The notes under the pieces were generated by a model that worked only from the letters and a program-made list of their open reading frames with translations, ran no database searches and was not told the origin of the DNA. From NCBI GenBank assembly GCA_030619345.1, contig JAUXBO010000001.1:1-28033 (forward strand): a stretch of DNA of 28,033 nucleotides, written 5' to 3'. Positions 3 through 18,444 of the stretch are shown here, one piece after another; the stretch's first letter is position 1; each line of letters begins with the position of its first letter. The translations under genes were made by a program, and so were the position numbers. The DNA is from Candidatus Zixiibacteriota bacterium (lineage in GTDB: Bacteria; Zixibacteria; MSB-5A5; GN15; FEB-12).

Positions 3-3000
3 GGGTTCCTTATTACAGGCGATAGTTGCTCAATTTACAACAACGATTTTCACGATAATTCGCTTTTCGGTGTTGATGCTCTGAGCGGCCAGTATTGTCT
101 GTTCGTCAATAACATTTTCAGTGATGACTTGCCTACATCTACCGGTTTGAGAGCCGACGGCAGTTGCACCATGTCCTATACATTGTTTTATAATATGGAT
201 ACTCCGTTCACGGGGGGGGTGAGTTTTTCGGCCGATCTGTGGTACGATGATCCGCAATATGTAGACGTTGCTGGTGGGAATTTCCACCTCAGTTCCTACT
301 CTCCAGCGATTGATGTGGGTAATGATGTCGGTTTGCCTTATAACAATAGCGCTCCCGATTTGGGTGCCTTTGAAACCAGTCCACTGGCTACGATACAGAT
401 TATTCCGGTTCTTGACAGTTTGAACGCTGATTCAAATTATCAGTTTGATATTGTGGCTCTCGACTCTTCTGGATTCCCGACTGATCCCGGGATCATTGAC
501 TGGTCGCATACGTTTTCATCAGGTCTGATCAGTTCTGGGGGACTTTTTGCTCCCGACCTGACCGGTAGCGGAATCGTGACGGCCCAATCGTTGACATACC
601 CAGTTTCGGGATCGACATCCAGTATGTCAGTTGTAGCGGGAGCTTTGGCGACGCTTACCGTTTTTCCTGATAGAGATACAATCTCAGCTGATTCGACCCG
701 ACTGTTTACAGCGGTGGGAGTTGACTCTCACGGGAATAATACGGGCACAGTTGGAAACCTAACGTGGGTTGTGAACGGAAATATCGGAACAATCGACAAC
801 ACCGGACTATTCGATGCCGGTCGGGCGGGAGTTGGATTCATAAATGTTCTTAGCGACTTGGGGCCGAGTGGGTCAAGTGACTCTATTATCGTTGTACCGG
901 GAGAATTGTCACAGCTTTCTATATTGCCACAATCGGCTATTGTTGTTCAGGCGGAAGCGCAACAATTCACAGCCCGTGGATTAGACAACGATTCCAATTT
1001 CGTGATTGACCTGACCGCCGGATCATCGTGGACGACCAGTGATCCCGACGGGGGTGTTGATGGTTCGGGATTATACACGGCCGGGAACATTGTTTCTCCA
1101 CCCGTATACTACGTCAAGGCTGTCAACGGCCCGTTATCAGATTCAGCTGAGGTAACGGTTATCGCCAGCGGAGCGATGACCTATATAAGAATTGAATTAG
1201 CAGATTATTCTATAGTAGATGACACCAGTCTTACGACAGACAATGACACGACCATATTTTATGCTCGTGGTTACGATGCCGGATGGACTCTGATTGGAGA
1301 TGTTATTGTCGATTGGTCTCTTACCGGTGCCGACACAATTGGCGTTTTGACTAACGCAAATGCGGCCTCAACCAATCTGATTTTGACAACACCGGGTCAG
1401 TCGATTATACAGGCTCTGTACAGTGGTTCACTGACTGACTCCACCGGTGTGATTACATGCACCCCGGGAGTAGCCAATCTAATCACGGTTGTTCCCGATA
1501 CCGTTACTCTCACAGCAGGTGATACTCTGGATTTCACAGTAGTGGTAACCGACGCCGATGGTAATGATCCGTCTCCAGGAGTTGTTCCCAGTTGGGATGT
1601 TAGTGGTGGAATTGGGACAATGCAGTTGTCGGGACAATTTGCCGCGCAAACGGCAGGAACCGGTTATGCTGTCGCCACCACTGGCGGACTTGCAGATACT
1701 TCCGGCGCGATTGTAGTAGAAGCGGGACCGTTGAGTAGTATTGTCGTGCTTCCGGACTCTTCTCAAATTACGGTTGATAGTAGCTTGCAGTTTACGGTTA
1801 CGGGAAGCGATGATTATGGGAATGACCAGTCTGCAGGAAATATTAGTTGGTCGCTGACCAATCCGATCGGCACAATTGATGGTACCGGCCTGTTTGTTCC
1901 ATCTGACCTTGGGATAACCCACGCTATTGCGACCTCGGATCTTGGGCCGGTAGACACTTGCGCCTATCTGGAAATTACTCCCGGACGGTTGGTAACTTTG
2001 ACAATCAGTCCTGATTCGGTTGATCTACTCAGTGGCGACGGCCAGCAGTTCACCGTATCGGGCACGGATGCTTTTGGTTATTCAACAGCTGTGGGTGGTA
2101 TAACCTGGTCGGTCCTCGGAGGCATTGGCGACATAGTTTCTTCCGGCGAATTCACGGCCACCACTGTTGGAAGCGGCCACATAATGGCGGTTAGTAGTAT
2201 CGACGCTGTTTCCGATACGAACCTTGCAGTTGTTGTTTCCGCAGCGGCTCCGACAAGACTGAGCATCTCACCGGACGAAGCAAGTATTGCGCTGGGCGAT
2301 TCCCTTGAATTCCATGTTGACGCCTATGATCCAAATTTCAACCCGGTCGATCCGGGGCAATTGTCCTGGAGTGTAATTGGCGGAATAGGGTCAATTGACA
2401 GTTTTGGCAAGTTTACAGCTTCTTCGCCCGGTACCGGGCAGATTGCTGTTTTCAGCACGACCTATAGCCTGAGTGATACCAGTTCGTTTATAATTGTCGA
2501 AGCGTTGGTGGTGACGACTTTACCATTGGGGAATCAGGTCGTGCTATCCGGCGACACTGATCTTTCCATATTGAGCTTTGAGATCAGTAATTTGTTCTCT
2601 GTCGACAAAACAGTCGAAGGGTTCACATTCAATAGTCACGACCACGGAGTTGGAACCGAGTTAGAGATGCTGAATAACATTGACTCTATTCATCTCTATG
2701 TAGATTCGATACCCGATAGCATCCTTAGCAGCATCGCCCTGGATTTCGAGACTAACTTGCTAACGTTCTCGCCGGTGATAATCCCGACCCTCGGAAGTAG
2801 AACCTTCAGAGTACTTGCCGATGCCAGTCGTTTTCCGCACGACGGTGATTCGGCTGATCTCATTCTCATACCGTCATCTGATGTAGTTGTGTCTGATGGT
2901 TCGGTGGTCTCGGGACCGGATACGGTCAACTCTCTCGGGTATTTGATTTTTAACGGGCTTTCTTACAATCAGATTGATCTTATCCCCGCTGGTCTGGATT

Positions 3001-6000
3001 CCATTATGCCCGCAGACAGCATGTACAACGTGATGACTATTGATATACCTCGGAACGGCTACTCTACCGATACCCTGGAGTTATTCAGTATAATAGTGGA
3101 CGCAGCCTCCGGTGGTACTGTTGACGAACTGGATTTCGATTCGCTCGTATTATATGCCGATAACGGTGATAACAACTGGGATGGACCACTGCTGGAGTCC
3201 AGATTAGGTATCCTGGCCTTCACTGGAAGCCGTTGGATCAGAAGTGGTCTTACCCTTGAGCTGGGCACGCCAATCACCCGGCTCTACGTTGGTGCCGTAC
3301 TATCGGAACGACCGACGCGAGGGGCTGTTGCAGCGTTTGGTATTCCCTTGAACGGAATCGAGATGGCGTCCAATAATGACGGTCCTATTGACTCCGAGGT
3401 CAGCGCCGTGGATAGTATCGTAATTTCCACCACCGAAGCGTTCTCGGTCTCAGCCATCGAAGGAGACATCCAGCGGCTTGTTCCGGGAGAAATATCGGAT
3501 GCTTTGATGACCATAGAGCTTCAGAATAACTTTGTTGATCCATACGTGTTGGACAGTCTCATTTTTGATCTTAATGTCAAGTCTGCCTTTTTTGAAGCTC
3601 AGTCTACAAAAGACAGTCAGTTCGACAGTCTGATACTTGTGTCGCACCAGATTTCCGATCTTGGCCAACTCCAGTCCCAGGGGACAGTTATTTCGTCAGC
3701 GTCAGCAGTCGGCGGTATTGCAGCATTTGACTGCAACAGTTTGACCATACTGGGAAGTGGTGATCGTGTGTATTTGAGTGTGATTGCGGCGATAAGTCTG
3801 GATTCGGCCAGAGACGGTAATCTTGTAGACATGTCGCTTCCTGATTCCACTCGAATTGTGTTGACTCCCTCGAGTTCCATAAAAGCCACTTACCCATTAG
3901 AGGGGACCACCGGACATTACATTGACGGTTTCCCTCTGGCGGCCACGATTGTGCACGAACTGGCGGCCCAGACCATTTTTGGTGGACAGTCACGGGTACC
4001 GGTTTTGGACTTCGAACTTCCGGGTAACGGTTATAGCGTGAATGAAATACTCATGCTTATGCGCCTGGTAAATGTCGGTACTCTGGACGATGGTGTAGCG
4101 ATCTCCTTGATGCAACTTTGGTATGATTGGCAGTCCGACGGCTTCACTACCGACGATTCTCTCATAGCTGACTTCAGTTATTCGGGGGGTGAGTGGTCTA
4201 CCGGGCAAGTTACTTATCCCTTTCTGCTACCCGGTCATAGTAGATTTATAGTTACCGTAGGTGCCGCTAGTAATCAGTTCACCGCCGGAACATTCCAACC
4301 TGTTGTACCGGTAGGTGGGGTAGTTTGTTGGCAGGGTCGGGATGGTCCTGATGATGGGGTGATATCAAACAGCGAAACACACCTGGTGATTCCGACTGAT
4401 CGGGTCACGGTGATTTCAATGCCGGGTGTAACAAGAAGCGCCTATCCGGGTTCTACGATCAACCAATTGCTTACATTTGCTCTCTACAATGGTTACGTGG
4501 GTATCGACTCGCTTTCTGTGGAAGCAATCACGTTCACTAATATTTCCAAGTCTCAATCAGGCGCGGTGTGGGCGGACAGTTCCTTAGCGCAAGTATTTTT
4601 GCACTTTGATATCGATAGCAATCGCATCTTTGATGATACCGACAGCCTGATCGGTACGGGATATTTTGCGGGCGGCAGATTGAAAATGAACGGTCTAAAC
4701 ATACTCTTGCAACCCGAAAAAATAAGCTCCTTCTTTATTTCCGCTGATCTCTCTCTTGCTCAGATCGACTCCGACAGTTTGGCTATATCAATTGAACAAG
4801 CTTCTGATTTTGTTTTCTCGGACACCGGTTCTGTCTCTGTTAATGGCGATCTGCCCCTTACCAGCGGCGGCTGGAACATTGTCGACGGCTCAGTTTGGGA
4901 TCAATACCAGTTAATAAATCTGCCGCCAAAATCTGTGATGCCGGGAGATACGGCTGTATTGTTAATGGCTTTCAGGCCGCCAAGTAACGGGAATCTATCT
5001 GACACCCTTATTTCACTGGTGGTGGAAAACGCCAATATATCAAATATCGCCGATGATAACGATATCAACAACATGAATCTGTGGATCGATCTAAATGACA
5101 ATTTGACCTTTGACTCCGGTGATAGTTTGATCGGCTCCTTGAATTTTCACGCAACGGGATATTGGGTCAGTGCAGGATTACAGTTGGAAATAGGCCGAAC
5201 TCCACCGCTGCTGATGTTGGTTGCCGATATTGCACCGGGTGCTGTCCCCGCCCACAAATTCCGTGGGAGTATTCCCACCGGTGGTTGTTTTTTTGAATCT
5301 TCAAACGACGGACCCCTCGATCAAGCTCTAGCAAGTAATAGCCAAGTTACAATTTCAAACGCGGCTCTGGCGGTGTCGCTTCAGAATCACCCATCTCGAT
5401 ATACGGTCGGACAGTCTGTTCATCATGTACTGACCGTGACCAACCTCGGTCTGACGTCATTGGTGGATGTCTCAGCTTACTCAATTATCGGAGACTCCTC
5501 GTTGGTGATCATCGACAGCAGCCAAAGTGGTCCGCTACCGCTCGCGGTTGGAGCTTCCACAGATTTTAATTTCTATTACACAGCAGTTGACACCGGCATA
5601 CTTGTCTGGCAATTCCAGGCAACGGCAGACGCTACCGGAGATTCCTCGATTGTACTTGCTACGGACTCAGTAGAGTTCCAACGAGCTGTAACCGGCGTTC
5701 CGATTCAGTTTGTAAACAGTATTCCAACTTCGGTTACCAAGGGGCAGACAAATATATTTCCGTTCAGTCTCATTGTAGACCATCCGAATACTGATCTTTT
5801 TGCGGCCTCGATAAGGCTGGACAGTTTGACTCTGCGGGTGGAAGATGGCTCAGGCAATGGTCGTCGAGCAGATTCAGTTCTATCACGACTGGTACTTGCT
5901 ACTGGCTATACTAATCTGACCATAATGGAGACAATTCCTGCCACCTCGGAACTAACCCTGATCTTCAGCGAACCGGTAGTAATTGATCCTTCGCAACAAC

Positions 6001-7994
6001 GGAGTTTCTCGCTTCTGATTGATATCGACAGCGCTGCCGCTGCCGGTAGTTTTGCGATGTCAATCATGGGCAGTTCCTCAATATCAGTAGTGGATCACAA
6101 CAGTTCGCAGCCGGTGAGCCTTGATCCCGGTCTCCAGTTCCCGATGGTGACCGCTTCCTGCCGGATTGATAATCCGTCGGCCAAATTGCTTCTATCCTCA
6201 GAATCTGTCCTGCAGTCCACGGTCAATTATGGCCAGGACGATCTGGACCTGGTGAAGTTACTGTTTACGCACCCCGGTGAATCCGGAAGTTCGCCTATTC
6301 AGGTGACTTCGGTTACCGTAAATTTTGTAGACAGCCTGCTCAGTCCAATTATTGCGACTCACCTGATCAAGCGCCTTCAGATTCGCAGACAGCAGGTCAT
6401 AGTGGCTGAGGTGACTAGTTTTGGAAGTTTAACTGATTCGGTTGAGGTCGTTCTGAATTCGCCTTTAACACTCAATCCGGGTGAGCGGGATTCGCTGGTC
6501 ATTCGAATATCAGTCGACGATCAATCGATATACAATAATTTTGGACTCGTCGTTTCCGACAGCACACGCTTTGTGGTAAGAGACCTGAGTTCCGGTTCGC
6601 TGATTGATATTGCGACCGATACAACAAGTCTGGCGACTGGTTCTGTATTTCCGATTTATTCCGGCAGCGCCCGACTCATGCAGCCGGCAGAAACGGCGGA
6701 AGTTTGTTTGACCTCGTTACTTCCGGAGGCTGTGGTCGGTGGCAAAGACAGTCTGGCGATGGTTGAAATATCTGTCGAATATCCGTCTACTCCCGATCAT
6801 TCTTCCGTTATCATTTTTGCGGCCAATGTCAACGTAATGGACTCGCTCGGTCGGCCTCTGGACCCGGATCGACTTTTTGACCGTATTGGTTATGCCGTTG
6901 ATGGACAGACTCCAATCTATCAATCGTTTGTCCAGTTAATCAATGGTTCCGCTCACTTTACTTTTGGGAGCGGTATCATATTGAATCCAGGCGACACCAG
7001 GACGATTTGGCTGATAGCTGACATTGAAGCCGATGTTCCTTTTACCAATTTTGCGATCTCAATCACCGAGACCAATGCCATGATATTGAGAGATGCCACA
7101 GACACAAGCGGCAGTCCCGGCTATCTTAGTGCCGGTTCCTGCAGTGGGCAATTCCCGTTTGTCACCAATACTGTTGACATTTTCCTTCCCGCAGGTCGGC
7201 CTTCGTTTGAAATTGCAAAACTTCCGGTTCAGGTAGCCGTCAAGGGTCAGGAGATGCTTAAAATATTCGGCGGAAAACTTAAGTACGAAGGCTCCGGCGC
7301 TCAAGGCGACATATCGGTAGAGGGTATAGGCGGCAAACTGACCCGGAGACTCCCCGATGGTTGGCAGATCACAGCCCCTGAGCAAGCTCTCTCGAAAATA
7401 AGCGTGATGGTCGATGGCAAGTCCGCCTTTGAGGACTCTCTGTTCTCCGGTGACAGTCTGCAATTAGACTTTGTTCAGCCGTACACGCTTGCCAGTGATA
7501 AGGAGATCGCTATCGAGATTTTCGTATCGCTAACGGAAGACTTGTCGCTCGGCAATTACTGCCTAAAGTTTGATGACTCCGGCTTTATCAAATTGTTAGA
7601 CAAGAATATTTCCAATAAGATATTTGCTTCAGGGAACGAGGAATACCCTCTTTATGCAACTGAAATATCAGTTCTCGAAGCAAACCTCCAGGAATCATTT
7701 GTCAACTACCCGAATCCATTCCATCCGTCGAATGGTGAACATACTACCTTAGCCTATGTACTGCCCGCCGATGCACATGTCGACATTGAGGCATTTACCA
7801 TCACCGGACAATTAGTTGCCGTAATAGCTGACAACCAGTTTCGTTCCGAGGGTGCCCATTCCGAAGATGTCTGGGCGGCGCTTAATGATCGCGGTCTCGA
7901 AGTAATCAGCGGCACTTACTATTGTCGCATTACGGCCCGTTATAGTTCCGGTAAAGTGGAAGAAGTTCGCAGGAAGATAGCGGTGATTCGATGA
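3..7994 (+). CDS. Giant repeat-rich secreted/surface protein, 5'-truncated at the window edge (>=2663 aa): end of a right-handed beta-helix, 8 Ig-like repeats, 3 doublet repeats, an Ig-like domain, 4 further beta-sandwich repeats and a C-terminal T9SS type-A/FlgD-like sorting domain
   Basis: The frame is open from nt 3 (GFLITGDSCSIYNNDFHDNSLFGV...LFVNNIF), so the TTG at 129 is not the true start. The N-terminal part has beta-helix-like NN ladders and the 'NFHLSSYSPAIDVG...PDLGAFE' cap typical of secreted beta-helix proteins. The C-terminus reads 'FVNYPNPF...GTYYCRIT...RKIAVIR'. The protein is Ser/Thr/Asp/Val-rich throughout. Confidence 0.9.
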   Translation, partial: GFLITGDSCSIYNNDFHDNSLFGVDALSGQYCLFVNNIFSDDLPTSTGLRADGSCTMSYTLFYNMDTPFTGGVSFSADLWYDDPQYVDVAGGNFHLSSYSPAIDVGNDVGLPYNNSAPDLGAFETSPLATIQIIPVLDSLNADSNYQFDIVALDSSGFPTDPGIIDWSHTFSSGLISSGGLFAPDLTGSGIVTAQSLTYPVSGSTSSMSVVAGALATLTVFPDRDTISADSTRLFTAVGVDSHGNNTGTVGNLTWVVNGNIGTIDNTGLFDAGRAGVGFINVLSDLGPSGSSDSIIVVPGELSQLSILPQSAIVVQAEAQQFTARGLDNDSNFVIDLTAGSSWTTSDPDGGVDGSGLYTAGNIVSPPVYYVKAVNGPLSDSAEVTVIASGAMTYIRIELADYSIVDDTSLTTDNDTTIFYARGYDAGWTLIGDVIVDWSLTGADTIGVLTNANAASTNLILTTPGQSIIQALYSGSLTDSTGVITCTPGVANLITVVPDTVTLTAGDTLDFTVVVTDADGNDPSPGVVPSWDVSGGIGTMQLSGQFAAQTAGTGYAVATTGGLADTSGAIVVEAGPLSSIVVLPDSSQITVDSSLQFTVTGSDDYGNDQSAGNISWSLTNPIGTIDGTGLFVPSDLGITHAIATSDLGPVDTCAYLEITPGRLVTLTISPDSVDLLSGDGQQFTVSGTDAFGYSTAVGGITWSVLGGIGDIVSSGEFTATTVGSGHIMAVSSIDAVSDTNLAVVVSAAAPTRLSISPDEASIALGDSLEFHVDAYDPNFNPVDPGQLSWSVIGGIGSIDSFGKFTASSPGTGQIAVFSTTYSLSDTSSFIIVEALVVTTLPLGNQVVLSGDTDLSILSFEISNLFSVDKTVEGFTFNSHDHGVGTELEMLNNIDSIHLYVDSIPDSILSSIALDFETNLLTFSPVIIPTLGSRTFRVLADASRFPHDGDSADLILIPSSDVVVSDGSVVSGPDTVNSLGYLIFNGLSYNQIDLIPAGLDSIMPADSMYNVMTIDIPRNGYSTDTLELFSIIVDAASGGTVDELDFDSLVLYADNGDNNWDGPLLESRLGILAFTGSRWIRSGLTLELGTPITRLYVGAVLSERPTRGAVAAFGIPLNGIEMASNNDGPIDSEVSAVDSIVISTTEAFSVSAIEGDIQRLVPGEISDALMTIELQNNFVDPYVLDSLIFDLNVKSAFFEAQSTKDSQFDSLILVSHQISDLGQLQSQGTVISSASAVGGIAAFDCNSLTILGSGDRVYLSVIAAISLDSARDGNLVDMSLPDSTRIVLTPSSSIKATYPLEGTTGHYIDGFPLAATIVHELAAQTIFGGQSRVPVLDFELPGNGYSVNEILMLMRLVNVGTLDDGVAISLMQLWYDWQSDGFTTDDSLIADFSYSGGEWSTGQVTYPFLLPGHSRFIVTVGAASNQFTAGTFQPVVPVGGVVCWQGRDGPDDGVISNSETHLVIPTDRVTVISMPGVTRSAYPGSTINQLLTFALYNGYVGIDSLSVEAITFTNISKSQSGAVWADSSLAQVFLHFDIDSNRIFDDTDSLIGTGYFAGGRLKMNGLNILLQPEKISSFFISADLSLAQIDSDSLAISIEQASDFVFSDTGSVSVNGDLPLTSGGWNIVDGSVWDQYQLINLPPKSVMPGDTAVLLMAFRPPSNGNLSDTLISLVVENANISNIADDNDINNMNLWIDLNDNLTFDSGDSLIGSLNFHATGYWVSAGLQLEIGRTPPLLMLVADIAPGAVPAHKFRGSIPTGGCFFESSNDGPLDQALASNSQVTISNAALAVSLQNHPSRYTVGQSVHHVLTVTNLGLTSLVDVSAYSIIGDSSLVIIDSSQSGPLPLAVGASTDFNFYYTAVDTGILVWQFQATADATGDSSIVLATDSVEFQRAVTGVPIQFVNSIPTSVTKGQTNIFPFSLIVDHPNTDLFAASIRLDSLTLRVEDGSGNGRRADSVLSRLVLATGYTNLTIMETIPATSELTLIFSEPVVIDPSQQRSFSLLIDIDSAAAAGSFAMSIMGSSSISVVDHNSSQPVSLDPGLQFPMVTASCRIDNPSAKLLLSSESVLQSTVNYGQDDLDLVKLLFTHPGESGSSPIQVTSVTVNFVDSLLSPIIATHLIKRLQIRRQQVIVAEVTSFGSLTDSVEVVLNSPLTLNPGERDSLVIRISVDDQSIYNNFGLVVSDSTRFVVRDLSSGSLIDIATDTTSLATGSVFPIYSGSARLMQPAETAEVCLTSLLPEAVVGGKDSLAMVEISVEYPSTPDHSSVIIFAANVNVMDSLGRPLDPDRLFDRIGYAVDGQTPIYQSFVQLINGSAHFTFGSGIILNPGDTRTIWLIADIEADVPFTNFAISITETNAMILRDATDTSGSPGYLSAGSCSGQFPFVTNTVDIFLPAGRPSFEIAKLPVQVAVKGQEMLKIFGGKLKYEGSGAQGDISVEGIGGKLTRRLPDGWQITAPEQALSKISVMVDGKSAFEDSLFSGDSLQLDFVQPYTLASDKEIAIEIFVSLTEDLSLGNYCLKFDDSGFIKLLDKNISNKIFASGNEEYPLYATEISVLEANLQESFVNYPNPFHPSNGEHTTLAYVLPADAHVDIEAFTITGQLVAVIADNQFRSEGAHSEDVWAALNDRGLEVISGTYYCRITARYSSGKVEEVRRKIAVIR
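384..2507 (+). repeat. Eight tandem ~87-aa Ig-like (Big_2/intimin-like) protein repeats
   Basis: Each unit follows roughly L-x-I-x-P-D-x6-7-(Q/E)-F-T-x-x-G-x-D-x-x-G-N...W-S-x-x-G-G-I-G-x-I-x-x-x-G-x-F-x-A-x-x-x-G. Units start LATIQIIP, LATLTVFP, LSQLSILP, MTYIRIE (divergent), ANLITVVP, LSSIVVLP, LVTLTISP and PTRLSISP. Confidence 0.8.
2508..5360 (+). repeat. Three tandem ~320-aa doublet (A+B) protein repeats
   Basis: Motifs recur at a ~320-aa period: PRNGY (3048), PGNGY (4020), PSNGN (4980); NDGP (3375), RDGP (4338), NDGP (5304). LxL(Y/W)xD plus acidic D-x-x-(F/W)-D loops and a conserved W recur in each B unit, and the A units end in (D/N)G. Confidence 0.75.
5688..7676 (+). repeat. Four ~165-aa beta-sandwich protein repeats (C1-C4)
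   Basis: Units begin VTGVPIQF, NPSAKLLL, QPAETAEV and LPAGRPSF. They share 'V-x-x-G-Q/K', 'P-x-x-(I/L)-x-P-G-(E/D)' (PVVIDPSQ, PLTLNPGE, GIILNPGD, PYTLASDK) and a terminal F/Y-P (QFPMVT, VFPIYS, QFPFVT, EYPLYA). Confidence 0.65.
7698..7994 (+). other. C-terminal T9SS type-A-like / FlgD Ig-like sorting domain of the giant protein
   Basis: Sequence FVNYPNPF-x-...TTLAYVLP...VDIEAFTITGQLV...W...NDRG..VISGTYYCRI...RKIAVIR matches the YPNP...G.Y...K pattern known for type-A CTDs. Confidence 0.8.
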
Positions 7995-9997
7995 AGGGTA
8001 GAATTATCGTATTCATTATGGTGGCTTTGTTAGCTGCACCTGTCTGGGGTGGGGAGGCCGGTACAGAGTCTCCATTTTCGATGGGGGCGGGTGCGGCCGA
8101 TATTGCTCTTGGTGGTTCAGCAGTGGCCAGTTCGGCCGGTTGGACAGCGTCCTACTGGAATCCTTCACGATTGGCTTCGATGGAGCAAACAGAGCTGGGT
8201 GGTTTCCATAGTCGTCTGTTTGACAGCGACGTTTCTTATCAATATCTGGGCATCGTACACCCGACGCTGGACCTCGGTACTTTTGGCTTTGGACTTTTTA
8301 GATTGGGGATTGGCGGTATTGAAAAAAGAGATGCCTCCAATCTGTATCTTGGTGATATTGAGGACAATCGACTTGGATTGTATCTGGCCTATGGGCGAAT
8401 GATTTCGGATTATCAGATCGGTTTGGCTCTGTCGATGGAACATCATTCTATCGATAACTACAAATCTACATCATCACCCGGTGCTACAATTGCTGTGTCG
8501 CGGTCATGGGAGATGGACGGGCGGATAAGAGGGGTGAAGGCGGCTCTGGTGCTGCGCAATGTCCTGAGTCCTTCGATGAAACTGGACAATGACGACGTGA
8601 ACTTGCCACTGTCGACCGATGTTGGTATCAGTGTTCCGGTACGACCTAAAGTGAGTTGGGATCACTTGGTTTATTTTCACTTAACTTTGAACAAGGTTGA
8701 CGCTCTGCCAGCGAAGATATCTACTGGTATAGAATACAATATTGGGCAATTGCTGGCTCTGCGTGGCGGCGCAAACGGCGGAAAGCTCACCGCCGGTGTC
8801 GGCATCAGAATCCGATCAGTCGGTTTTGATTACGCTTTCGTGGATCGTGATCTCGGTACGCTGCATATGTTTAACTTGACCAGTGTATTTGGAAAGAGTC
8901 AATCAATCAAACGGCAGGAACGCATAACTCGGCGCGAACAAGAATTCAATGATCTGATGTCCCAGCAGTTGACCGCCAGCAACGAGAAAATGTTATCGCA
9001 ACTGGTCGATCGCGGCGAAATGGCGCTTGATGGTGGTGATTTGGAACAAGCCGAAAGCCAGTTTGACCGGGCGCTGTTCCTGGCCCGTGCCTCCGGCTAT
9101 GATACGACTCAAATATTTGCCACGCTCGTGGACGTTCGTAATCGACTGGACGAAGTAGGGCGTCTCCAGCAGTACAATGCTCATCTGGATTCTGCTCAGG
9201 TGAATATGGCCGCAGGTGATTTTCTTGCTACGCGGTATTATGCATCGTTGGCTCTCAAGTATGTTGATAATTCCGAACAGGCCCGACAATTGATCGAAGA
9301 AGCCGAAGAAAACCTTCACCGCGAGAGCTCCCGCGAGGAGCTTATCAAACAGCGCATTCTTCTTTCGGATTCTCTCGTCAGTTACGGACGGACAGACGAG
9401 GCGATCAGCATTCTTTTGAGTCTTGTTGAAATTGCGCCCGATGATAACACAGTCTTGATGGCTCTTCGCAGAGCACAATTTGAGCGCCTTCGGGCCAAAG
9501 CTTCCCAAGCCTACAACGACAAACGCCTCACCAATGCCATCGTTAGCCTCGATTCCGCATTAGGTTACTTCCCCGGGCATCAATGGTGTGAAGAGATGAA
9601 GAGCATGATCTTCGGTCAAATCAAAGTCAGCAAGAACAAGGGAACAAAGTCAGTCCAACTGAAAAAGACCGTGTTGAGTGCGGAACTGCGAAGAGAAGTT
9701 GAAGACACCTACCAAAGAGGACAGCAGTTGTTTACCTCCGGCAACATGACGGTGGCAATTGAAAACTGGGAGAGAGTGGAACGGATTGCGCCCGATTATG
9801 CCTCGGTTCGAGAGTATCTCATCAATGCCTACAAGTTTGTTGGAGTCGAATTGTACAGCCAGGGAGACCTTACACAGGCAGTCGAAATTTGGAAGAGGGC
9901 GGCTCAGCTGCGGCCGGATAACCTGGAGATTGGGGAATATATAAAGAGAACTGAAAACGAAATCAGAAAGCTGAAAGAATTATCTTATGAACCGTAA
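7991..9997 (+). CDS. PorV/PorQ-family outer-membrane beta-barrel (approx. aa 21-301) fused to a C-terminal TPR/coiled-coil region (approx. aa 302-668)
   Basis: Signal peptide MKGRIIVFIMVALLAAPVWG. PorV-like N-terminal motif 'GAGAADIALGGSAVA...ASYWNPSRLA'. Alternating beta-strands end 'GFDYAF...LHMFNLTSVFG'. TPR-like helices follow (e.g. 'TYQRGQQLFTSGNMTVAIENWERVERIAPD', 'LYSQGDLTQAVEIWKRAAQLRPDN'). ATGA overlap with the upstream stop. Confidence 0.8.
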   Translation: MKGRIIVFIMVALLAAPVWGGEAGTESPFSMGAGAADIALGGSAVASSAGWTASYWNPSRLASMEQTELGGFHSRLFDSDVSYQYLGIVHPTLDLGTFGFGLFRLGIGGIEKRDASNLYLGDIEDNRLGLYLAYGRMISDYQIGLALSMEHHSIDNYKSTSSPGATIAVSRSWEMDGRIRGVKAALVLRNVLSPSMKLDNDDVNLPLSTDVGISVPVRPKVSWDHLVYFHLTLNKVDALPAKISTGIEYNIGQLLALRGGANGGKLTAGVGIRIRSVGFDYAFVDRDLGTLHMFNLTSVFGKSQSIKRQERITRREQEFNDLMSQQLTASNEKMLSQLVDRGEMALDGGDLEQAESQFDRALFLARASGYDTTQIFATLVDVRNRLDEVGRLQQYNAHLDSAQVNMAAGDFLATRYYASLALKYVDNSEQARQLIEEAEENLHRESSREELIKQRILLSDSLVSYGRTDEAISILLSLVEIAPDDNTVLMALRRAQFERLRAKASQAYNDKRLTNAIVSLDSALGYFPGHQWCEEMKSMIFGQIKVSKNKGTKSVQLKKTVLSAELRREVEDTYQRGQQLFTSGNMTVAIENWERVERIAPDYASVREYLINAYKFVGVELYSQGDLTQAVEIWKRAAQLRPDNLEIGEYIKRTENEIRKLKELSYEP

Positions 9998-11573
9998 TGC
10001 CAACGAGGTTTTCCAACAGGAATGGCCACATCCCTCCGAATTCAAAAAATCGATCCGGATGGAGTTTTCCATCTACATATCATCTATGATTCTGCTTCTG
10101 ATGATCATTGCCGGATCGATTATTACTGACCGGTACATTGATGTTGTGACGCAGGCGGCAGCTGACAAACTCCTGGTTCAGGCCCGTTCGTATTCCGGAC
10201 CGGCCGGGAAGTTGATAATCTCCACAACTGGACCAGACGCCTTGTTGCTGAACAATATCTGCAAGAAACTAGCGGCAGATAATTCTGATATCACCTGGGT
10301 CAGTATTACGGGGCGCGAAGACGTTCTTCTGGCCCATACTGACATTAGAAAAGTTGCGACCGGCGGTCGGTTGGCTCCTGTTGTCGGCGGTGAATATCCT
10401 TCGCTGTTAAGAGACGGGGAGGGATTTAAGGTAGAGGCTGAAGCCATCAGAATCAGTGTTCCAATTACCGAAGGTGAGGTTCTGGTGGGACATCTTCACC
10501 TGGTTTCATCGGCTGCGAAGATTGCCTCGGCTCGCAAGGACTCTATACTGGCGGTAGCTACAGTTTCCATTTTGGTACTCCTGTTCGGCCTGCCGCTGAT
10601 AATGATAGGGCTACATCACAAGCTTCGCCCAATCAGTATCATAACGGATCATCTTAAGGACATTAAGTTTGATAACATCAAACTGGACATCCCGGTCAGT
10701 GGTCGAAATGAGCTTGGCTACCTGTCTGAGACTCTCCGAGTGATGGGCGGGAAACTCAATGCTGTCCAGAAAGAGATGATAGAGTCGGAGAGAATCTCCA
10801 GAGAATTCGAAATCGCCAGAGAGATTCAAGCCAGTATTCTCCCATCTTCCATTCCGACAAACGATGATTATAGTTTTACCGGCTTTTACCGCAGCGCCAA
10901 AGAGGTGGGAGGCGACTACTATGACTTCATTAAGTTGTCAGACAACAAAGTTGCCTTTCTGGTAGCAGACGTTTCCGGGAAATCGCTGCCCGGAATGTTG
11001 GTTATGTTGCTAACCCGAGATATTGTAAAGAATCACTGTTATAAAACGCTCGACCCGGTATCTCTTTTGTGCAAGGTCAACAGTGAACTTCTTGCCAATA
11101 TGAAGAAAGGGATGTTCGTCACGATGTTTTACGGTGTTTTGGACTATTCGTCCGGCTTGTTCCGTTTTGCGTCGGCTGGCCACAACCCACTTATTGTTAT
11201 GAATGATCACGAAGAGCCTCGCTTGATAAAAACCAAAGGCTTCCCGCTGGGAATGGTACCTTCGGATAAGTTTGACAATAGAATCGAACGGGGAGAACTG
11301 AAGCTCAAAGCCAAAGACTGGCTCATTCAGTTCACCGACGGAATCAATGAAGCTCAGGGCCGGGACGGCGAGGAATTCGGAATGGACCGCTTGGTCAGCC
11401 AATTGCAAAGTACGGCCGCACTAAGTCCGGAGCAGTTGATTGAATCAGTCATTGCAAATCTTGACCAATTTGTTGGCGAGCAGCCTCAATTTGATGACAT
11501 AACTCTAATTGCCCTGAAATTAAGTACAACATCTGTCGATAAAAATGTTATGCAGAAGGAAGAGTGTTATTGA
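9987..11573 (+). CDS. Membrane sensor / HAMP / PP2C (SpoIIE/RsbU-family) Ser/Thr phosphatase
   Basis: Two hydrophobic segments (approx. aa 27-47 and 187-209) flank a ~140-aa extracytoplasmic domain. HAMP 'LRPISIITDHLKDI...RNELGYLSETLRVM'. PP2C motifs intact: EVGGDYYD, ADVSGK, FTDGINEA, FDDITL. Start overlaps the upstream gene by 11 nt. Confidence 0.92.
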   Translation: MNRNANEVFQQEWPHPSEFKKSIRMEFSIYISSMILLLMIIAGSIITDRYIDVVTQAAADKLLVQARSYSGPAGKLIISTTGPDALLLNNICKKLAADNSDITWVSITGREDVLLAHTDIRKVATGGRLAPVVGGEYPSLLRDGEGFKVEAEAIRISVPITEGEVLVGHLHLVSSAAKIASARKDSILAVATVSILVLLFGLPLIMIGLHHKLRPISIITDHLKDIKFDNIKLDIPVSGRNELGYLSETLRVMGGKLNAVQKEMIESERISREFEIAREIQASILPSSIPTNDDYSFTGFYRSAKEVGGDYYDFIKLSDNKVAFLVADVSGKSLPGMLVMLLTRDIVKNHCYKTLDPVSLLCKVNSELLANMKKGMFVTMFYGVLDYSSGLFRFASAGHNPLIVMNDHEEPRLIKTKGFPLGMVPSDKFDNRIERGELKLKAKDWLIQFTDGINEAQGRDGEEFGMDRLVSQLQSTAALSPEQLIESVIANLDQFVGEQPQFDDITLIALKLSTTSVDKNVMQKEECY

Positions 11574-12337
11574 TGTCCGTTGATACCAGAAAAACTCCGA
11601 TGCTCGAACTGCCGGTAGATGCCGGGTTTGAGCGGCAGCAGGAGTTCATAGTCGAACTTAAAGAGTCAGTCAAACATGCTGTAGGCGAACTGTTTGTGGA
11701 CTGTTCAAAAGTTGAGCAAGTTACTTCCACGCATGTCAATATCCTGTGGCGAGCGTATTCGATCTGTAAGGATTCCGGCGTCAGGATGATATTGAAGAAT
11801 CCTACCGAGAGTGTTGTACGGGTCCTCAGCATACTCGACCTCCGTGAGATGTTCTTGATTGACGAAAGTAATGATTACTCCAAAGTCAGTCAGGAGGGAA
11901 CACAGAAGCCCCAGACTCTTGACAATCTCCTTTCAATGAAGATCAAACTCGAATCCAGTGAGATTGCCACCGGTCTAAAACGCGTGCAGGAATTTCTAAA
12001 AAGCGTACCTGTAACTTCAGCCTGTTCTGTGGAAATAGAGACTATATTCTACGAGCTGGCTACCAATGTACTTTTGTACAGTAAGCTAACCTCCAGCGAT
12101 CTTCTGGACTGTTCTGTCGAAGTGACCAAGAATAGAATTACAATGAAATTCATTGATTCAGGTGTGCTGTTCGATCCCTCGACTGCTGAAATACGGTACG
12201 ATCCCAAGTCAATGATTTCCAATTACCAGAAGCGTGGGTTGGGGCTGGTAATGATACGAAGAATGGCAGATACCATTAGTTATGAACGTCGGGATGACGG
12301 TGTGAACATAGTTACAGTGATGAAAGACTGGAGATAA
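11573..12337 (+). CDS. Fusion of an N-terminal STAS domain and a C-terminal RsbW/SpoIIAB-like Ser kinase (HATPase_c_2)
   Basis: STAS 'LFVDCSKVEQVTSTHVNILW...LKNPTESVVRVLSILDL'. GHKL boxes: ELATN, DSG, GLGL. Likely start is the ATG at 11573 (TGATG overlap with the phosphatase stop, AAGGAAGAG upstream) rather than the GTG at 11564. Confidence 0.85.
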   Translation: MSVDTRKTPMLELPVDAGFERQQEFIVELKESVKHAVGELFVDCSKVEQVTSTHVNILWRAYSICKDSGVRMILKNPTESVVRVLSILDLREMFLIDESNDYSKVSQEGTQKPQTLDNLLSMKIKLESSEIATGLKRVQEFLKSVPVTSACSVEIETIFYELATNVLLYSKLTSSDLLDCSVEVTKNRITMKFIDSGVLFDPSTAEIRYDPKSMISNYQKRGLGLVMIRRMADTISYERRDDGVNIVTVMKDWR

Positions 12338-12340
12338 CCG

Positions 12341-12679
12341 ATGTCGGATAGCAAGATAATTCAGCAGCAAGTAAACGACAATTCGCTCAGAATAAAAACG
12401 CCAGGGGTACTCGACAATAGCAATGCCCATGAAATGATAGAGATACTAATCGACGCCCACAAGCGTGGTTTTGTCAACATCGTCATCGATATGAGCGATC
12501 TGGGTTTTATCTCATCTGCCGGAGTGGGATCTATACTCGGTACCGTGGAACTTTTCCGCGAAGTAGGTGGGGATATCATTTTGTGTAACCTGACTCCTTC
12601 GGTCGTGCACGTGTTTGAGGTACTCGATCTGACTGATTATCTAACCGTGCGGAGCGAATTGAAAGAAACAATCAGATAG
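12341..12679 (+). CDS. STAS-domain anti-sigma-factor antagonist (RsbV/SpoIIAA-like)
   Basis: 'IVIDMSDLGFISSAGVGSIL...GGDIILCNLTPSVVHVFEVLDL'; the Ser equivalent to SpoIIAA Ser58 is retained. GGAG RBS at 12330-12333. Confidence 0.92.
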   Translation: MSDSKIIQQQVNDNSLRIKTPGVLDNSNAHEMIEILIDAHKRGFVNIVIDMSDLGFISSAGVGSILGTVELFREVGGDIILCNLTPSVVHVFEVLDLTDYLTVRSELKETIR

Positions 12680-12692
12680 ATTATGATTACGA

Positions 12693-14378
12693 GTGGATAA
12701 GATGACTCCTGATACAAAACAACTATTTGAGAATTATGCAGCGGGCGGATATGACGAAGTCTCTTTTCAGCGCAATTTGATGGCGCTTGATGCGCTTTCA
12801 AAGCTCGCCAGACAGTTTTCCAACCAACCACACCTGGAGCACTTGTCATCGTTACTGTTGCTAACATTAGCCGGGCAGTTTTCCATAAGCAGCGCCTTTG
12901 CCTTGTTCTGCGATCCCGGGTTGTCTGATTCCGGCCAGGCCTACATGGGATTTGGTAAACTGAAGAACAGCACTGTTCTTGAGAAAATGGTCATACCCGT
13001 TTGCATTCGCGAACATTTTGTTACCAATCCTGATCCGGTGCTGGTGGATGAATACGAATCGCTGGCTGAATGCGGTGAAATTCAGGAAATCTTCCAGACG
13101 AACAATATCAAAATCATCGTGCCGCTGGTGCACAACGACAGTCTGATCGGTATTATCGGTCTGGGAGAGAAAGTCACTAAGAAAGAATTTGAGCCCAATG
13201 ACCTTGACATTCTGTGTACACTGGCTCATTCGATTACTCCCTTTATCTCAAATTCTATCCTGTTCCGTGAATTATCCGACCTCAACTGCTGGTATGTTGA
13301 TATTTTAAATTCCGTCAAACAGGCCGTGCTTATTTTTGATAGCAACTATCGGTTGAAGTTGGCAAATCTTTCAGCCATAAGCATTTTGGAAAAGCTGCAT
13401 GGCAACGCAGCCATTTACGCCACCCGTAAACCCTCGATTGATGAGCTATTGACGCAGTCTGCATTTCCGGGCTGGCATAGTCGTCTCGAAACTGCAAATA
13501 GTACGGGGATGAGCAGAATGCTCGAGAGTATGGTAGCCTATGTCGGGGATGAAGAGCTCATTTTCAACGTACACACGGGGAGATTCAAACGGGACAATCA
13601 AGGCGACTACGATATCTTCGTAACCCTGGACAACATCACCGATCAGAAAGCAAGCGAGCAACGTCTGTTTGAGGTAGAGAAATTCGCCGAAAAGGGTGTT
13701 ATGGCGTCGACTATCGCTCACGAACTAAACAATTTCCTGGGACTGATCCTGGGTGGAACTGAGTTGGCTGGAATGGCTTTGGCCAAGGGGAACACAGACA
13801 AAGTGGCTGCTACTCTGGAGAAGATCAAAGGAAACGTGGGGAAAATGGAACGTTTCACGGCTGGACTGGTCGACTACACTCGCCTGAATACCAAAAAGCA
13901 CGAGACTAACTTAAATGACATAATCTCCGATGTACTGTCTTTTGTCGCCGTGCAGAAGAAATTTACCCGTATTACGATTACCACTGATCTGGCGAAAGAT
14001 CTCCCGTCTTTTACTCTCGATGCCGATCAGATGTCTCAGCTTATCATGAACCTTGTCAACAATGCCGCCGATGCTATCAAGGAGTCGGGGAAACCCACTC
14101 GCCGGATATCCGTTTCCACCAGATTCGAGAATATCTATGCTGTTCTGATCATTTCTGACAACGGAACGGGAATCAAGCCTGAGCTCAAAGAGAAACTCTT
14201 TAAGGCTCACTTTACGACAAAAGAAAAGGGGCATGGATTTGGTCTGGTCACTTGCTCAAAAATTATCTATAATCACAAGGGCAAAATTGACATTGAGACT
14301 GAAATTGGAAAAGGCTCTACTTTCATGCTATCTTTCCCCATCGCCCAATCCACTGCATCCGATTTATCAGACAGTTGA
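12693..14378 (+). CDS. Cytoplasmic GAF-PAS-like sensor histidine kinase (start may be the ATG at 12702)
   Basis: GAF 'IVPLVHNDSLIGIIGLGEK...DLDILCTLA'. H-box 'STIAHELNNFLG', N-box 'QLIMNLVNNAADA', G1 'ISDNGTGI', F/G2 'HFTTKEKGHGFGL'. No evident signal peptide or transmembrane segment. Confidence 0.92.
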   Translation: MDKMTPDTKQLFENYAAGGYDEVSFQRNLMALDALSKLARQFSNQPHLEHLSSLLLLTLAGQFSISSAFALFCDPGLSDSGQAYMGFGKLKNSTVLEKMVIPVCIREHFVTNPDPVLVDEYESLAECGEIQEIFQTNNIKIIVPLVHNDSLIGIIGLGEKVTKKEFEPNDLDILCTLAHSITPFISNSILFRELSDLNCWYVDILNSVKQAVLIFDSNYRLKLANLSAISILEKLHGNAAIYATRKPSIDELLTQSAFPGWHSRLETANSTGMSRMLESMVAYVGDEELIFNVHTGRFKRDNQGDYDIFVTLDNITDQKASEQRLFEVEKFAEKGVMASTIAHELNNFLGLILGGTELAGMALAKGNTDKVAATLEKIKGNVGKMERFTAGLVDYTRLNTKKHETNLNDIISDVLSFVAVQKKFTRITITTDLAKDLPSFTLDADQMSQLIMNLVNNAADAIKESGKPTRRISVSTRFENIYAVLIISDNGTGIKPELKEKLFKAHFTTKEKGHGFGLVTCSKIIYNHKGKIDIETEIGKGSTFMLSFPIAQSTASDLSDS

Positions 14379-14406
14379 TCTTGTCCGATAGTCCTGCGAC
14401 ATTCTA

Positions 14407-14514
14407 TTATTTGTCAGAATTATAAGGGGAGAGGGCAGTCTGTCGGTGACGGTCCGCCACAGCAATTAAGCTCGATGCAGCGGTCGCCAAAATAAAGACG
14501 GCCAGAAATTGCAA
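14407..14514 (-). CDS. Putative 35-aa small membrane peptide MQFLAVFILATAASSLIAVADRHRQTALSPYNSDK (TTG start)
   Basis: Perfect SD AAAAGGAGGT (complement of 14521-14530) lies 6 nt before an in-frame TTG. About 20 uninterrupted apolar/small residues are followed by a charged tail. The ORF is fully intergenic. Confidence 0.5.
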   Translation of the reverse strand: MQFLAVFILATAASSLIAVADRHRQTALSPYNSDK

Positions 14515-14624
14515 TACACTACCTCCTTTTCCAATGCCGGATATGAAGCGGAACCTCAAAAGAACAAACTGCTGTCCTTCAACCTTATAGTAAAAACTCC
14601 TAATCGGCAAATCACGAAAAGGGC

Positions 14625-14653
14625 TTGAAATAGCTCCGCTTTCGGCTTAACTT
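14625..14653 (+). promoter_or_regulatory. Candidate sigma70-type promoter for the peptidase operon
   Basis: TTGAAA (14625-14630) - 17 nt - TAACTT (14648-14653); strong RBS GGAGGT at 14698-14703 before the ATG at 14708. Confidence 0.4.
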
Positions 14654-14707
14654 TTAATACGTCTAATCTTGAATTACCAAACCGCGTGATCAGTTCGGGA
14701 GGTATTT

Positions 14708-16720: not shown

Positions 16721-18444
16721 AAAAACTCAGCTTAATTTTTGCCATAATCTTATTGTGTATGTTGGCCACCTCCGTAAGTTCTGAGAAACTACGTTTGACT
16801 TTTGACCATTTCTATGACGGGCAGGCTGTCATAGACGCCGTTCATGATCTGCACAAGGCTTATCCCAATCTGACGACATTACAGTCCTTGGGCCAGAGTG
16901 AAGAAGGACGCGATATCTGGCAGTTAACCATCAATAATCCCAAGACCGGCAAGGACACGGAAAAGCCCGGCATTTATGTCGACGGTTCTATTCACGGTAA
17001 CGAGATCCAGGCGACTGAAGTCTGTCTTTACCTGGTCTGGTATTTACTGGATTCTTACGACAGCAATCCGGTAATCACCAAGCTGGTGGATAGTCGCGCT
17101 TTCTACATTATCCCGATTGTAAATGTCGATAGCCGGTGGCATTTCTTTACCGATGCCGGCGATTATAATATCGGGCGCACGGGCATGGTGCCCTACGATG
17201 ACGATCGCGACGGCCTCCTTGATGAGGATGGCCCGGATGATATTGACGGTGACGGCCAGATTCTCCGCATGCGGATTAAGGACCCATACGGTAATTGGAA
17301 AAGCCATCCGGACGACGCCAGAGTAATGGTCCGGGTAAAAGATGGGGAACAGGGCCAATGGACCCGTCTGGGTTCTGAGGGTATTGACAACGACGGCGAT
17401 GGACAGATTAACGAAGATGGGCCCGGCTATCTGGATATGAACCGCAATTGGGGCTTTAAATGGCAGCCTCCCTATGTTCAGTCAGGCGCAGGGGACTTTC
17501 CAATGTCCGGCAAAGTAACCAGAGCCGTGTCGAGCTTCATTTTATCTAAACCGAATATCTGCTTTAATTTTGCTTTTCATAATTCCGGTGGTCTGATTGT
17601 CCGCGGACCGGGATCAAAACTGGCCGGAATGTACCCACCGCAGGATGTCAAAGTGTATGATTACCTTGGACACGAAGGCGAAAAAATCCTCCCCGGATAC
17701 GAATACATAATTGGCGGGCAGGATATGTACACGACCCACGGAGACTTTGATGAGTGGATGTATTCCAACCTCGGAATCTTCGGATTCGTGGGCGAACTAT
17801 TCATGAGTGAACAGGAGCGCTACCGTCTTCTCAAGAAAAATGCGGACAAGGACGAAGAATGGTTTGACGGTACCCCGGCAATTGAGAAACACAAGTTCGA
17901 CGATAACGTCAATCAGGGGCAGATGTTCTCGGACTGGAAAGAATTCGACCATCCGGTACTTGGGAAAATTGAGATAGGTGGTTGGAATACATTTACGACC
18001 CGTATCCCGCCTCTGTTTATGCTCCCGGAGATGGTCCATCGCAATGCCTCGCTCGTTATTTTTACTGCCCAGCAGGCTCCCGAAGTGAATCTTGAATTGA
18101 TCGACATAACCGACATCGGTAATGGGCTTAAGAGAGTACGGGTTCGTGCCCACAATGGCAATGCTATACCCTCACTGTCCGCTCAAGCTGTAAGGAGAGA
18201 CATCTATCGCAAAGATATGTTCGAGATTACCGGCGGTTCCATAGAAGTTGTCTCCGGTGGTATTATCAGCGACCTTCACATGGATCGTGTGTCTCCAAAA
18301 CGAAATCGGCCCGAAGTTATCTTTTCCAGTGTTCCGGCTTTTGGAACTTGCGAAGTCCAATGGATCGTCAAGGGGAGTGGCTCGGCCACTATCAGTTACT
18401 CGGCTATTAAGGCCAAGAATTTGAAATTGAGTATTAAGCTCTAA
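16717..18444 (+). CDS. Secreted M14-family zinc carboxypeptidase, catalytic residues intact
   Basis: Signal peptide; 'DGSIHGNE' (16993-17004), 'DMNRNWG', 'FAFHNSGG' (His 17578), 'FVGELF' (Glu 17794). ATGA overlap with the upstream paralog. Confidence 0.92.
   Translation: MKKLSLIFAIILLCMLATSVSSEKLRLTFDHFYDGQAVIDAVHDLHKAYPNLTTLQSLGQSEEGRDIWQLTINNPKTGKDTEKPGIYVDGSIHGNEIQATEVCLYLVWYLLDSYDSNPVITKLVDSRAFYIIPIVNVDSRWHFFTDAGDYNIGRTGMVPYDDDRDGLLDEDGPDDIDGDGQILRMRIKDPYGNWKSHPDDARVMVRVKDGEQGQWTRLGSEGIDNDGDGQINEDGPGYLDMNRNWGFKWQPPYVQSGAGDFPMSGKVTRAVSSFILSKPNICFNFAFHNSGGLIVRGPGSKLAGMYPPQDVKVYDYLGHEGEKILPGYEYIIGGQDMYTTHGDFDEWMYSNLGIFGFVGELFMSEQERYRLLKKNADKDEEWFDGTPAIEKHKFDDNVNQGQMFSDWKEFDHPVLGKIEIGGWNTFTTRIPPLFMLPEMVHRNASLVIFTAQQAPEVNLELIDITDIGNGLKRVRVRAHNGNAIPSLSAQAVRRDIYRKDMFEITGGSIEVVSGGIISDLHMDRVSPKRNRPEVIFSSVPAFGTCEVQWIVKGSGSATISYSAIKAKNLKLSIKL

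Follow-up and report, generated by a model that had tools for sequence, protein, structure and literature searches.

A PorV-family barrel with a tetratricopeptide-repeat tail, encoded between a giant sorting-domain protein and a phosphatase sensor in Zixibacteria

The cargo-barrel pair and the genes behind it

We analysed two adjacent genes and their surroundings in a 28,033 nt-long stretch of DNA (hereafter the window; GenBank assembly GCA_030619345.1, contig JAUXBO010000001.1, positions 1 to 28,033 of the forward strand) from a Candidatus Zixiibacteriota bacterium, whose metagenome-assembled genome (MAG) comprises 2.28 Mb on 306 contigs and is 85.6% complete. The first gene encodes a giant protein ending in a C-terminal sorting domain (CTD) that resembles the type A domains of T9SS (the type IX secretion system), and the second encodes an outer-membrane barrel of the PorV/PorQ family that continues into tetratricopeptide-like repeats (TPR). 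This cargo-barrel pair opens a conserved cassette made up of cargo, barrel-TPR protein, a PP2C phosphatase with transmembrane, periplasmic and HAMP segments, a STAS-kinase, a STAS protein and a histidine kinase. New is the fusion of a TPR domain to a barrel of this family together with its strictly conserved signalling context; the protein belongs to this family by its fold and by a near-threshold match of a hidden Markov model (HMM). The six genes lie packed on the plus strand (3-14378), with overlaps or tiny gaps between them, and comprise the following features.

3-7994, plus strand: giant cargo gene, 5′-truncated where the contig begins, ≥2663 aa (open reading frame, ORF, and domain scan)
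7692-7991, plus strand: type A-like CTD, comprising the C-terminal 100 aa of the cargo protein (HMMs, alignment)
7991-9997, plus strand: barrel-TPR gene, 668 aa (ORF)
7991-8050, plus strand: signal peptide of the barrel-TPR protein, aa 1-20 (hydrophobic stretch aa 1-24, read from the sequence)
8063-8893, plus strand: PorV/PorQ-family domain, N-terminal plug and 14-strand beta-barrel, aa 25-301 (NF033709, AlphaFold2 model, Foldseek)
8900-9994, plus strand: predicted periplasmic arm, with a 45-residue helix (aa 304-348) and TPR-like repeats (aa 349-668) (Pfam TPR, AlphaFold2 model)
9987-11573, plus strand: inner-membrane sensor phosphatase, SpoIIE/PP2C (Pfam and NCBIfam HMMs)
11564-12337, plus strand: STAS-kinase, in which a STAS domain is joined to an RsbW/SiaB-like serine kinase, HATPase_c_2 (HMMs)
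12341-12679, plus strand: single-domain STAS protein, an RsbV/SiaC-like switch protein (HMMs)
12693-14378, plus strand: GAF-containing histidine kinase, the last gene of the conserved cassette (HMMs)

The stop codon of the cargo gene (TGA, 7992-7994) overlaps the ATG of the barrel gene (7991-7993) in an ATGA, and the start of the PP2C gene overlaps the end of the barrel gene by 11 nt. An earlier reading of the sequence without database searches (the sequence-only reading) had described a type A-like CTD ending in an ATGA overlap with a PorV-family gene and had seen no further T9SS gene in the window; the CTD alignment and HMM scans of the 28 kb agree with both statements. The histidine kinase is encoded without a response regulator in the operon, and a promoter and terminator scan of positions 7000-15000 returned nothing exceeding the shuffled expectation.

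Barrel, arm and sorting domain

The 668-aa barrel-TPR protein matched the PorV_fam model NF033709 over model positions 9-323 of 326 (E 1.1e-22, 81 bits, with a curated cut-off of 90 bits). An AlphaFold2 model computed with 69 homologues (predicted local distance difference test score, pLDDT, 85) consists of a helical N-terminal plug, 14 long strands between aa 67 and 300, a 45-residue helix at aa 304-348 and TPR-like helices up to aa 666, with a disordered linker in the arm at aa 545-559; several Pfam TPR matches lie between aa 340 and 650. The last barrel strand (aa 289-300) is followed by the invariant G301 and a tail of 365 aa, close to the end near aa 301 and the ~370 aa TPR tail that had been read from the sequence. 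By this extension the protein departs from the single-domain PorV/PorQ size of ~330-400 aa. The top Foldseek matches of the model were the PorV structures 8GL6_F (E 2.2e-10) and 6H3I_F (E 8.2e-9), both with a template modelling (TM) score of 0.66, and PorV was the sole non-TPR match when the family profile was compared with the sequences in the PDB. The domain is thus a plugged 14-strand barrel of the FadL superfamily with PorV as its closest structural match, as expected of PorV/PorQ proteins.

Since PorV falls in the FadL superfamily, and FadL (E 1.3e-5, TM 0.50) and TodX (E 1.2e-4, TM 0.35) are among the lower-ranking Foldseek matches, we considered a FadL/TodX-type channel for hydrophobic substrates that lies beside the cargo gene by chance. 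PorV fits clearly better, however (E 2e-10 and TM 0.66 versus 1.3e-5 and 0.50), PorV_fam is covered over nearly its full length, the 668-aa protein has no Pfam match to FadL/Toluene_X (PF03349) at E ≤ 0.01, and a CTD adjoins the barrel in 48/48 loci (see below). The FadL/TodX identity, which the sequence-only reading had named as what would overturn it, was rejected on the missing family match and the lower fold rank, and a chance neighbour of this kind has next to no probability. A PorP/SprF identity was rejected as well, the window barrel having no HMM match to PF11751/TIGR03519.

When the strand count of an outer-membrane barrel is even, both termini are periplasmic. Coming after 14 strands, the arm should therefore be located in the periplasm by general barrel topology, the side on which it had also been expected in the sequence-only reading. 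Conservation within the protein is highest in the last TPR block of the arm (aa 564-668), at a mean identity to the window copy of 56%, compared with 48% for the barrel, and an FP(G/D)HxW motif in the arm is almost invariant. The arm also holds the sole cysteine of the barrel-TPR protein (C533, window 9587-9589), which is kept in 81% of the orthologs, and the sole periplasmic cysteine of the PP2C protein (C92, window 10260-10262) is kept in 98%. The two do not co-vary, as nine orthologs without C533 retain C92, which rules out an obligatory disulfide between arm and sensor.

The cargo combines, in this order, a partial beta-helix at the truncated start, immunoglobulin-like domains and ~2000 aa without a Pfam match. 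It is a conserved ortholog of the cargos of three other loci (L051, L058 and L059; ~34% identity over ~2200 aa), and complete orthologs carry Sec signal peptides, the N-terminus of the window copy being cut by the contig end. Its CTD aligns column by column with ~30 generic CTDs of the host genome, with which it has the NYPNPF and GxY motifs in common, and it has the features of a type A CTD, namely a C-terminal domain of ~80-100 aa with these motifs on a protein of the Sec-signal type. On TIGR04183 it scored 18.7 bits, under the cut-off of 23, and so does not pass as a TIGR04183/PF18962 hit; the scores against the C-termini of NF052323 and of the PorU model NF033707 were 31.7 and 23.8 bits, respectively. 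When a profile of 47 orthologous cargo C-termini was compared with the PDB, the single CTD-type match, a weak one (E 0.018), was the CTD of Porphyromonas gingivalis PorU (6ZA2). With an extra insert and the terminus ..AVIR, the domain represents a subtype that most resembles the retained CTD of PorU, retained CTDs being known as ‘group III’ (PMC7712824). Barrel-adjacent CTDs in general end in ..AV[IVL][RK], possess the extra insert as in PorU and have weak TIGR04183 scores or none, whereas generic CTDs end in KKMxLLK. In a CTD tree the barrel-adjacent domains fell on one side of a branch, a grouping that is only suggestive given its weak support (32/77, 38% of bootstraps) and the inclusion of orthologs in the set.

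A conserved cassette and its paralogue

The PP2C protein is laid out as a first transmembrane segment (~aa 27-50), a periplasmic domain (~aa 55-180), a second transmembrane segment, a HAMP-like segment and the PP2C/SpoIIE domain. With Pfam scores of 151 bits for SpoIIE, 51 bits for HATPase_c_2 and 55 bits for STAS, the signalling genes constitute an RsbU/SiaA-type partner-switch gene set; the SiaA model itself gave 53.7 bits on the window PP2C, far under its equivalog cut-off. A membrane-bound HAMP-PP2C protein, a HATPase_c_2 kinase and a STAS-like switch protein also make up SiaABCD of Pseudomonas aeruginosa (PMC7647112). That system has no outer-membrane or surface-protein partner, however, and the output of the window cassette is a histidine kinase and not a cyclase.

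Four annotated loci of other MAGs, with barrel-TPR proteins of 39-46% identity, contain the same series of a giant protein, barrel-TPR protein, transmembrane HAMP-PP2C protein, STAS-kinase, STAS protein and PAS/GAF kinase. Counting the window, all five annotated loci show a 4-nt overlap between cargo and barrel genes, and the overlap of the barrel gene with the PP2C gene measures 8-17 nt. With HMMs built from the five we counted gene neighbours in 58 loci from GTDB species representatives. The CTD type of the window (type 1) lies directly upstream of the barrel-TPR gene in 48/48 loci, and downstream of it we found the PP2C in 47/47, the STAS-kinase in 46/47, and the STAS protein and the histidine kinase in 44/45 each. 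One type-1 locus (CP070756.1, L116, 613210-635222) is without STAS-kinase, STAS protein and kinase; its PP2C match breaks off early, with a weak CTD-like match behind it, a pattern suggestive of a rearrangement. The periplasmic domain of the PP2C is about as well conserved as the catalytic domain (50% versus 53% identity). The private barrel that the sequence-only reading had assigned to the cargo is thus a constant neighbour, and the constancy of the CTD subtype would be genetic support for its binding by the barrel.

A second cassette of this kind lies on contig C218 of the same MAG, in the order CTD protein, 611-aa PorV-TPR protein, a fusion of HATPase_c_2, sCache, HAMP and PP2C, STAS protein, GGDEF protein and Wza-like exporter. 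Its barrel scored 109 bits on PorV_fam and sub-threshold 20 and 27.6 bits on the PorP/SprF models. NCBI names its orthologs ‘PorV/PorQ family protein’, and homologues of the window-type barrel-TPR protein are annotated merely as hypothetical or TPR proteins. The C218 type was found in 47 of the 61 Zixibacteria genomes searched; the order of CTD protein, barrel-TPR protein and kinase-sCache-PP2C fusion is kept in 29/29 such loci, and in two further genomes the same arrangement was seen to run on into an exopolysaccharide (EPS) locus. Because the best non-self matches in the MAG of the window PP2C, barrel-TPR, STAS and kinase proteins all lie within the C218 cassette, and because the modules of two transmembrane segments and a periplasmic domain are homologous between the two sensors (hhalign 97%, E 9e-11), the two cassettes are, by sequence comparison, paralogous as whole units. 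In the host genome a PP2C gene neighbours only the two tailed barrels.

The C218 cassette, with its diguanylate cyclase and EPS genes, resembles SiaABCD, and this wiring, which points to a decision on biofilm formation or attachment, could favour a flow of control from the inside out. The partner switch or PP2C would then sense a cytoplasmic or periplasmic cue and act through the arm so that the barrel keeps or releases its cargo, analogous to the control of the adhesin LapA by LapD and LapG. The same synteny evidence applies to such control. However, the cassette conserves neither a protease nor any other release factor, HAMP-bearing PP2C proteins normally signal inward, and the cassettes end in cytoplasmic outputs (STAS, then a histidine kinase or GGDEF protein), which fits an outside-in flow; we therefore regard inside-out control as improbable.

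Wider relatives retain the core of the arrangement. An exhaustive phmmer search yielded 170 cluster representatives at E ≤ 1e-30, including a full-length tier of 640-700 aa at 25-32% identity, and three distant relatives that we looked up (25-29% identity) have the giant protein, the barrel-TPR protein and the sCache-HAMP-PP2C protein in 3/3 cases. The kinase and STAS parts vary among the three: they are joined to the PP2C C-terminus, encoded on their own, or joined to each other. In a tree of the barrel alone, which was unrooted and built on a small comparison set, all TPR-tailed barrels fell on one side and the tail-less paralogs of the host genome on the other (support 90/96), a topology that fits a single origin of the barrel-TPR fusion. 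One of the three distant relatives has a cluster-mate named as Eisenbacteria. We do not claim a multi-phylum range from locus names (Ignavibacteriales, Calditrichota, Eisenbacteria), as the labels are too unreliable and a single distant cluster bears the Eisenbacteria name.

Secretion background and a possible trans-envelope pathway

The sequence-only reading had placed the pair in a minimal or divergent display system outside the classical T9SS. The host genome, however, encodes SprA, split over two contig ends (246 and 206 bits), PorU (610 bits) with PorV directly after it, eight full-length PorV-family genes and more than 30 type A CTD proteins, with 30 ORFs over the TIGR04183 cut-off; 4/4 closed Zixibacteria genomes (G012, G015, G106 and G142) likewise have both SprA and PorU, whose models come from the same library as those for the Gld proteins below and score 440-690 bits. 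A genome without T9SS is thereby ruled out, and the barrel belongs to a genome with translocon, sortase and CTD cargos, as is the case for PorV/PorQ. For the motor and ring the search went the other way. GldL (TIGR03513), GldM (two models) and GldN gave no match at E ≤ 0.01 in the MAG and the four closed relatives, with a control panel that contained no T9SS organism, so that the sensitivity is unproven, and GldK (TIGR03525) gave none in the MAG, the sole genome searched for it and likewise with no T9SS-bearing control (models run: TIGR03525, TIGR03513, TIGR03517, PF12081 and TIGR03523). The Zixibacteria T9SS may thus work without a recognisable PorKLMN motor and ring, and a divergent energising apparatus is possible.

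The missing GldK/L/M/N matches (given these controls) and the example of the small CTD protein PorA of P. gingivalis, which gets to the surface independently of the translocon (PMC7712824), could be taken to favour a minimal CTD-dependent display without the classical T9SS, in which the barrel itself passes or displays the cargo. Apart from the presence of SprA, PorU and PorV, a protein of >2600 aa would need a far wider passage than a plugged barrel of 14 strands offers, PorA comprising just 246 aa, and we consider this explanation very improbable. Export of the cargo through SprA is likely.

Cargo-barrel pairs recur among the PorV paralogs of the host genome, on C218 as described and on three other contigs.

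Contig C74: 907-aa protein, then a 335-aa barrel
Contig C200: 889-aa protein, then two barrels
Contig C88: PorU, PorV and a 1129-aa CTD protein

Both the number of paralogs and their CTD neighbours had been proposed as checks in the sequence-only reading, and several of the eight genes do adjoin CTD genes. The PorV gene right after PorU (C88:8589-11396; L053:4590-7397) encodes 935 aa, its PorV_fam match being split (model positions 2-40 and 43-324) by an insertion of ~600 aa with a Reg_prop (beta-propeller) match. At C32:5044-11882 (L056), the gene for a SusC-like TonB-dependent receptor (CarboxypepD_reg and Plug, 1136 aa) directly precedes those for a PorV-family barrel of 337 aa and a protein of 796 aa without a Pfam match. 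At C52:112-3150 (L057), an M6 peptidase with a strong type A CTD adjoins a weakly PorV-like protein of 431 aa, which recalls NF052323 (T9SS-dependent M6-like protein) and NF052325 (PorV2) of NCBIfam, a pair on which we found no literature.

Dedicated PorV-family anchors for type A CTD proteins are already known from the T9SS attachment complex of P. gingivalis, where PorQ pairs with PorZ and PorV with PorU (PMC5562754). The cognate pairing claimed in the sequence-only reading holds, but that reading took no account of these anchors, nor did its note on the pair extend to the constant association with a membrane PP2C partner-switch module. As in these pairs, in which a 14-strand barrel holds one particular type A CTD protein via its uncleaved CTD, the window combines such a barrel with a cargo whose CTD most resembles that of PorU, and PorU and PorV are also adjacent in the host genome. 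PorQ and PorV are, however, stand-alone proteins of ~330-400 aa without a periplasmic domain and with partners that belong to the machinery, whereas the window barrel bears a 365-aa TPR arm, has a giant passenger of >2600 aa as partner and is set with it in a signalling operon. Flavobacterium johnsoniae PorV in the SprA translocon (6H3I; 8GL6 with the RemA CTD), the best structural match, contacts the substrate CTD as well (PMC10994853), but it is tail-less, unlinked to a cargo gene and a general shuttle for many type A cargos. SprF-SprB and other PorP-type pairs also encode a giant surface protein beside its own outer-membrane barrel; they differ in barrel family and in having type B instead of type A-like CTDs, and they are not known to have a TPR arm or signalling module. 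That cargo and barrel in the window are a cognate anchor pair is highly probable.

We propose that the barrel is a PorQ/PorZ-like dedicated anchor for one giant cargo and that its periplasmic arm couples this surface protein to the phosphatase sensor, a reading to which we assign a probability of roughly one half. Sec would take the cargo across the inner membrane and the SprA translocon across the outer one, and the private barrel would then hold its PorU-like CTD and keep the giant protein on the surface, as PorQ holds PorZ and PorV holds PorU. From the C-terminus of the barrel the long helix and TPR array would run into the periplasm, where the arm might touch the Cache-like domain of the PP2C phosphatase encoded by the adjacent gene. 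Whether the surface protein is bound, pulled, present or lost could thereby set the balance of phosphatase and kinase on the STAS switch, and hence the terminal histidine kinase. For physical coupling of arm and sensor taken by itself, we put the chances a little short of even.

Precedent for such a relay comes from the PorA-PorXY/SigP system of P. gingivalis, in which the CTD protein PorA, kept at the surface and bound to PorV, signals to the inner-membrane kinase PorY via an unknown mediator, some factor having to bridge outer and inner membranes (PMC7712824). There, PorA is small (246 aa), the gene of the histidine kinase PorY lies elsewhere and the barrel has no known extension, whereas the window offers the TPR arm as a candidate bridge and a PP2C sensor encoded next to it. 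The way in which a surface CTD protein informs an inner-membrane sensor is an open question of the T9SS field (PMC7712824), for which a candidate bridge would here be built into the barrel, and as the sensor gene follows and overlaps the barrel gene, a defined pair of periplasmic domains can be tested for binding. The concept is similar to that of TonB-dependent transducers such as FecA-FecR, in which an outer-membrane barrel that extends into the periplasm reports an event at the surface to a regulator in the inner membrane. FecA differs in its unrelated 22-strand barrel, its N-terminal signalling domain, its anti-sigma partner and its energising by TonB.

The main rival is a helper function in export or anchoring only, in which the arm would serve secretion or assembly (as a periplasmic holder of the cargo, a docking partner of SprA or a substitute for TPR scaffolds such as PorW or PorE), and the PP2C, STAS and histidine kinase proteins would regulate the operon or sense other cues without contact to the arm. 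Periplasmic TPR scaffolds have T9SS precedents in PorW, which links the PorK/N ring to Sov (PMC8754138), and in PorE (PG1058), which combines TPR, beta-propeller and OmpA_C domains (PMC5053529). With GldK/L/M/N undetected, something else must organise export, and Cache-like domains such as those of the sensors typically bind small molecules. A mere export helper does not account, however, for the fixed place of the sCache-HAMP-PP2C gene immediately behind the barrel-TPR gene, as a rule with an overlap, across three subfamilies that have diverged deeply and in which the remaining signalling genes change places. Nor does it explain that tail-less PorV paralogs beside cargo genes of the same genome lack such neighbours. 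We judge this explanation unlikely, while giving it more credit than the other alternatives.

Several observations weigh against the proposed anchor with a coupled sensor. On the side of the anchor, the barrel is a near miss on the curated family model, the cargo CTD scores below the TIGR04183 cut-off, and cleavage of the CTD, if it happens, would leave the barrel as a transient carrier only; the non-detection of GldK/L/M/N makes the export route in the phylum less certain. As for the coupling, the conservation of gene order equally fits co-regulation without physical contact, C533 and C92 vary independently, and a sensor whose domain usually binds small ligands may not need a TPR arm.

Our literature search found no paper on a T9SS in Zixibacteria, on ‘PorV2’, on PorV-TPR fusions or on PorV with PP2C/STAS. 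The cassette suggests an undescribed link from a surface protein to intracellular signalling, and the proposal is a first functional hypothesis for a cassette that is present in most Zixibacteria genomes searched. More broadly, and tentatively, PorV-TPR barrels might be the outer-membrane half of a previously unrecognised trans-envelope pathway, in which a giant sensor displayed by the T9SS (for example, of contact or tension) would act through the TPR arm on the Cache-HAMP-PP2C protein, the partner switch and finally a histidine kinase or a cyclic di-GMP/EPS output, in phyla that apparently possess SprA, PorU and PorV but no recognisable PorKLMN motor. The finding also shows that PorV-family barrels have diversified outside Bacteroidota into probable cargo-specific anchors with extra domains, and it draws attention to a phylum whose SprA, PorU and PorV seem to function with no PorKLMN apparatus that could be detected.

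Downstream of the cassette, two overlapping, adjoining genes for M14 carboxypeptidase-like proteins occupy positions 14708-18444, the first with a partial, weak Peptidase_M14 match (54 bits versus 135 bits in the second).

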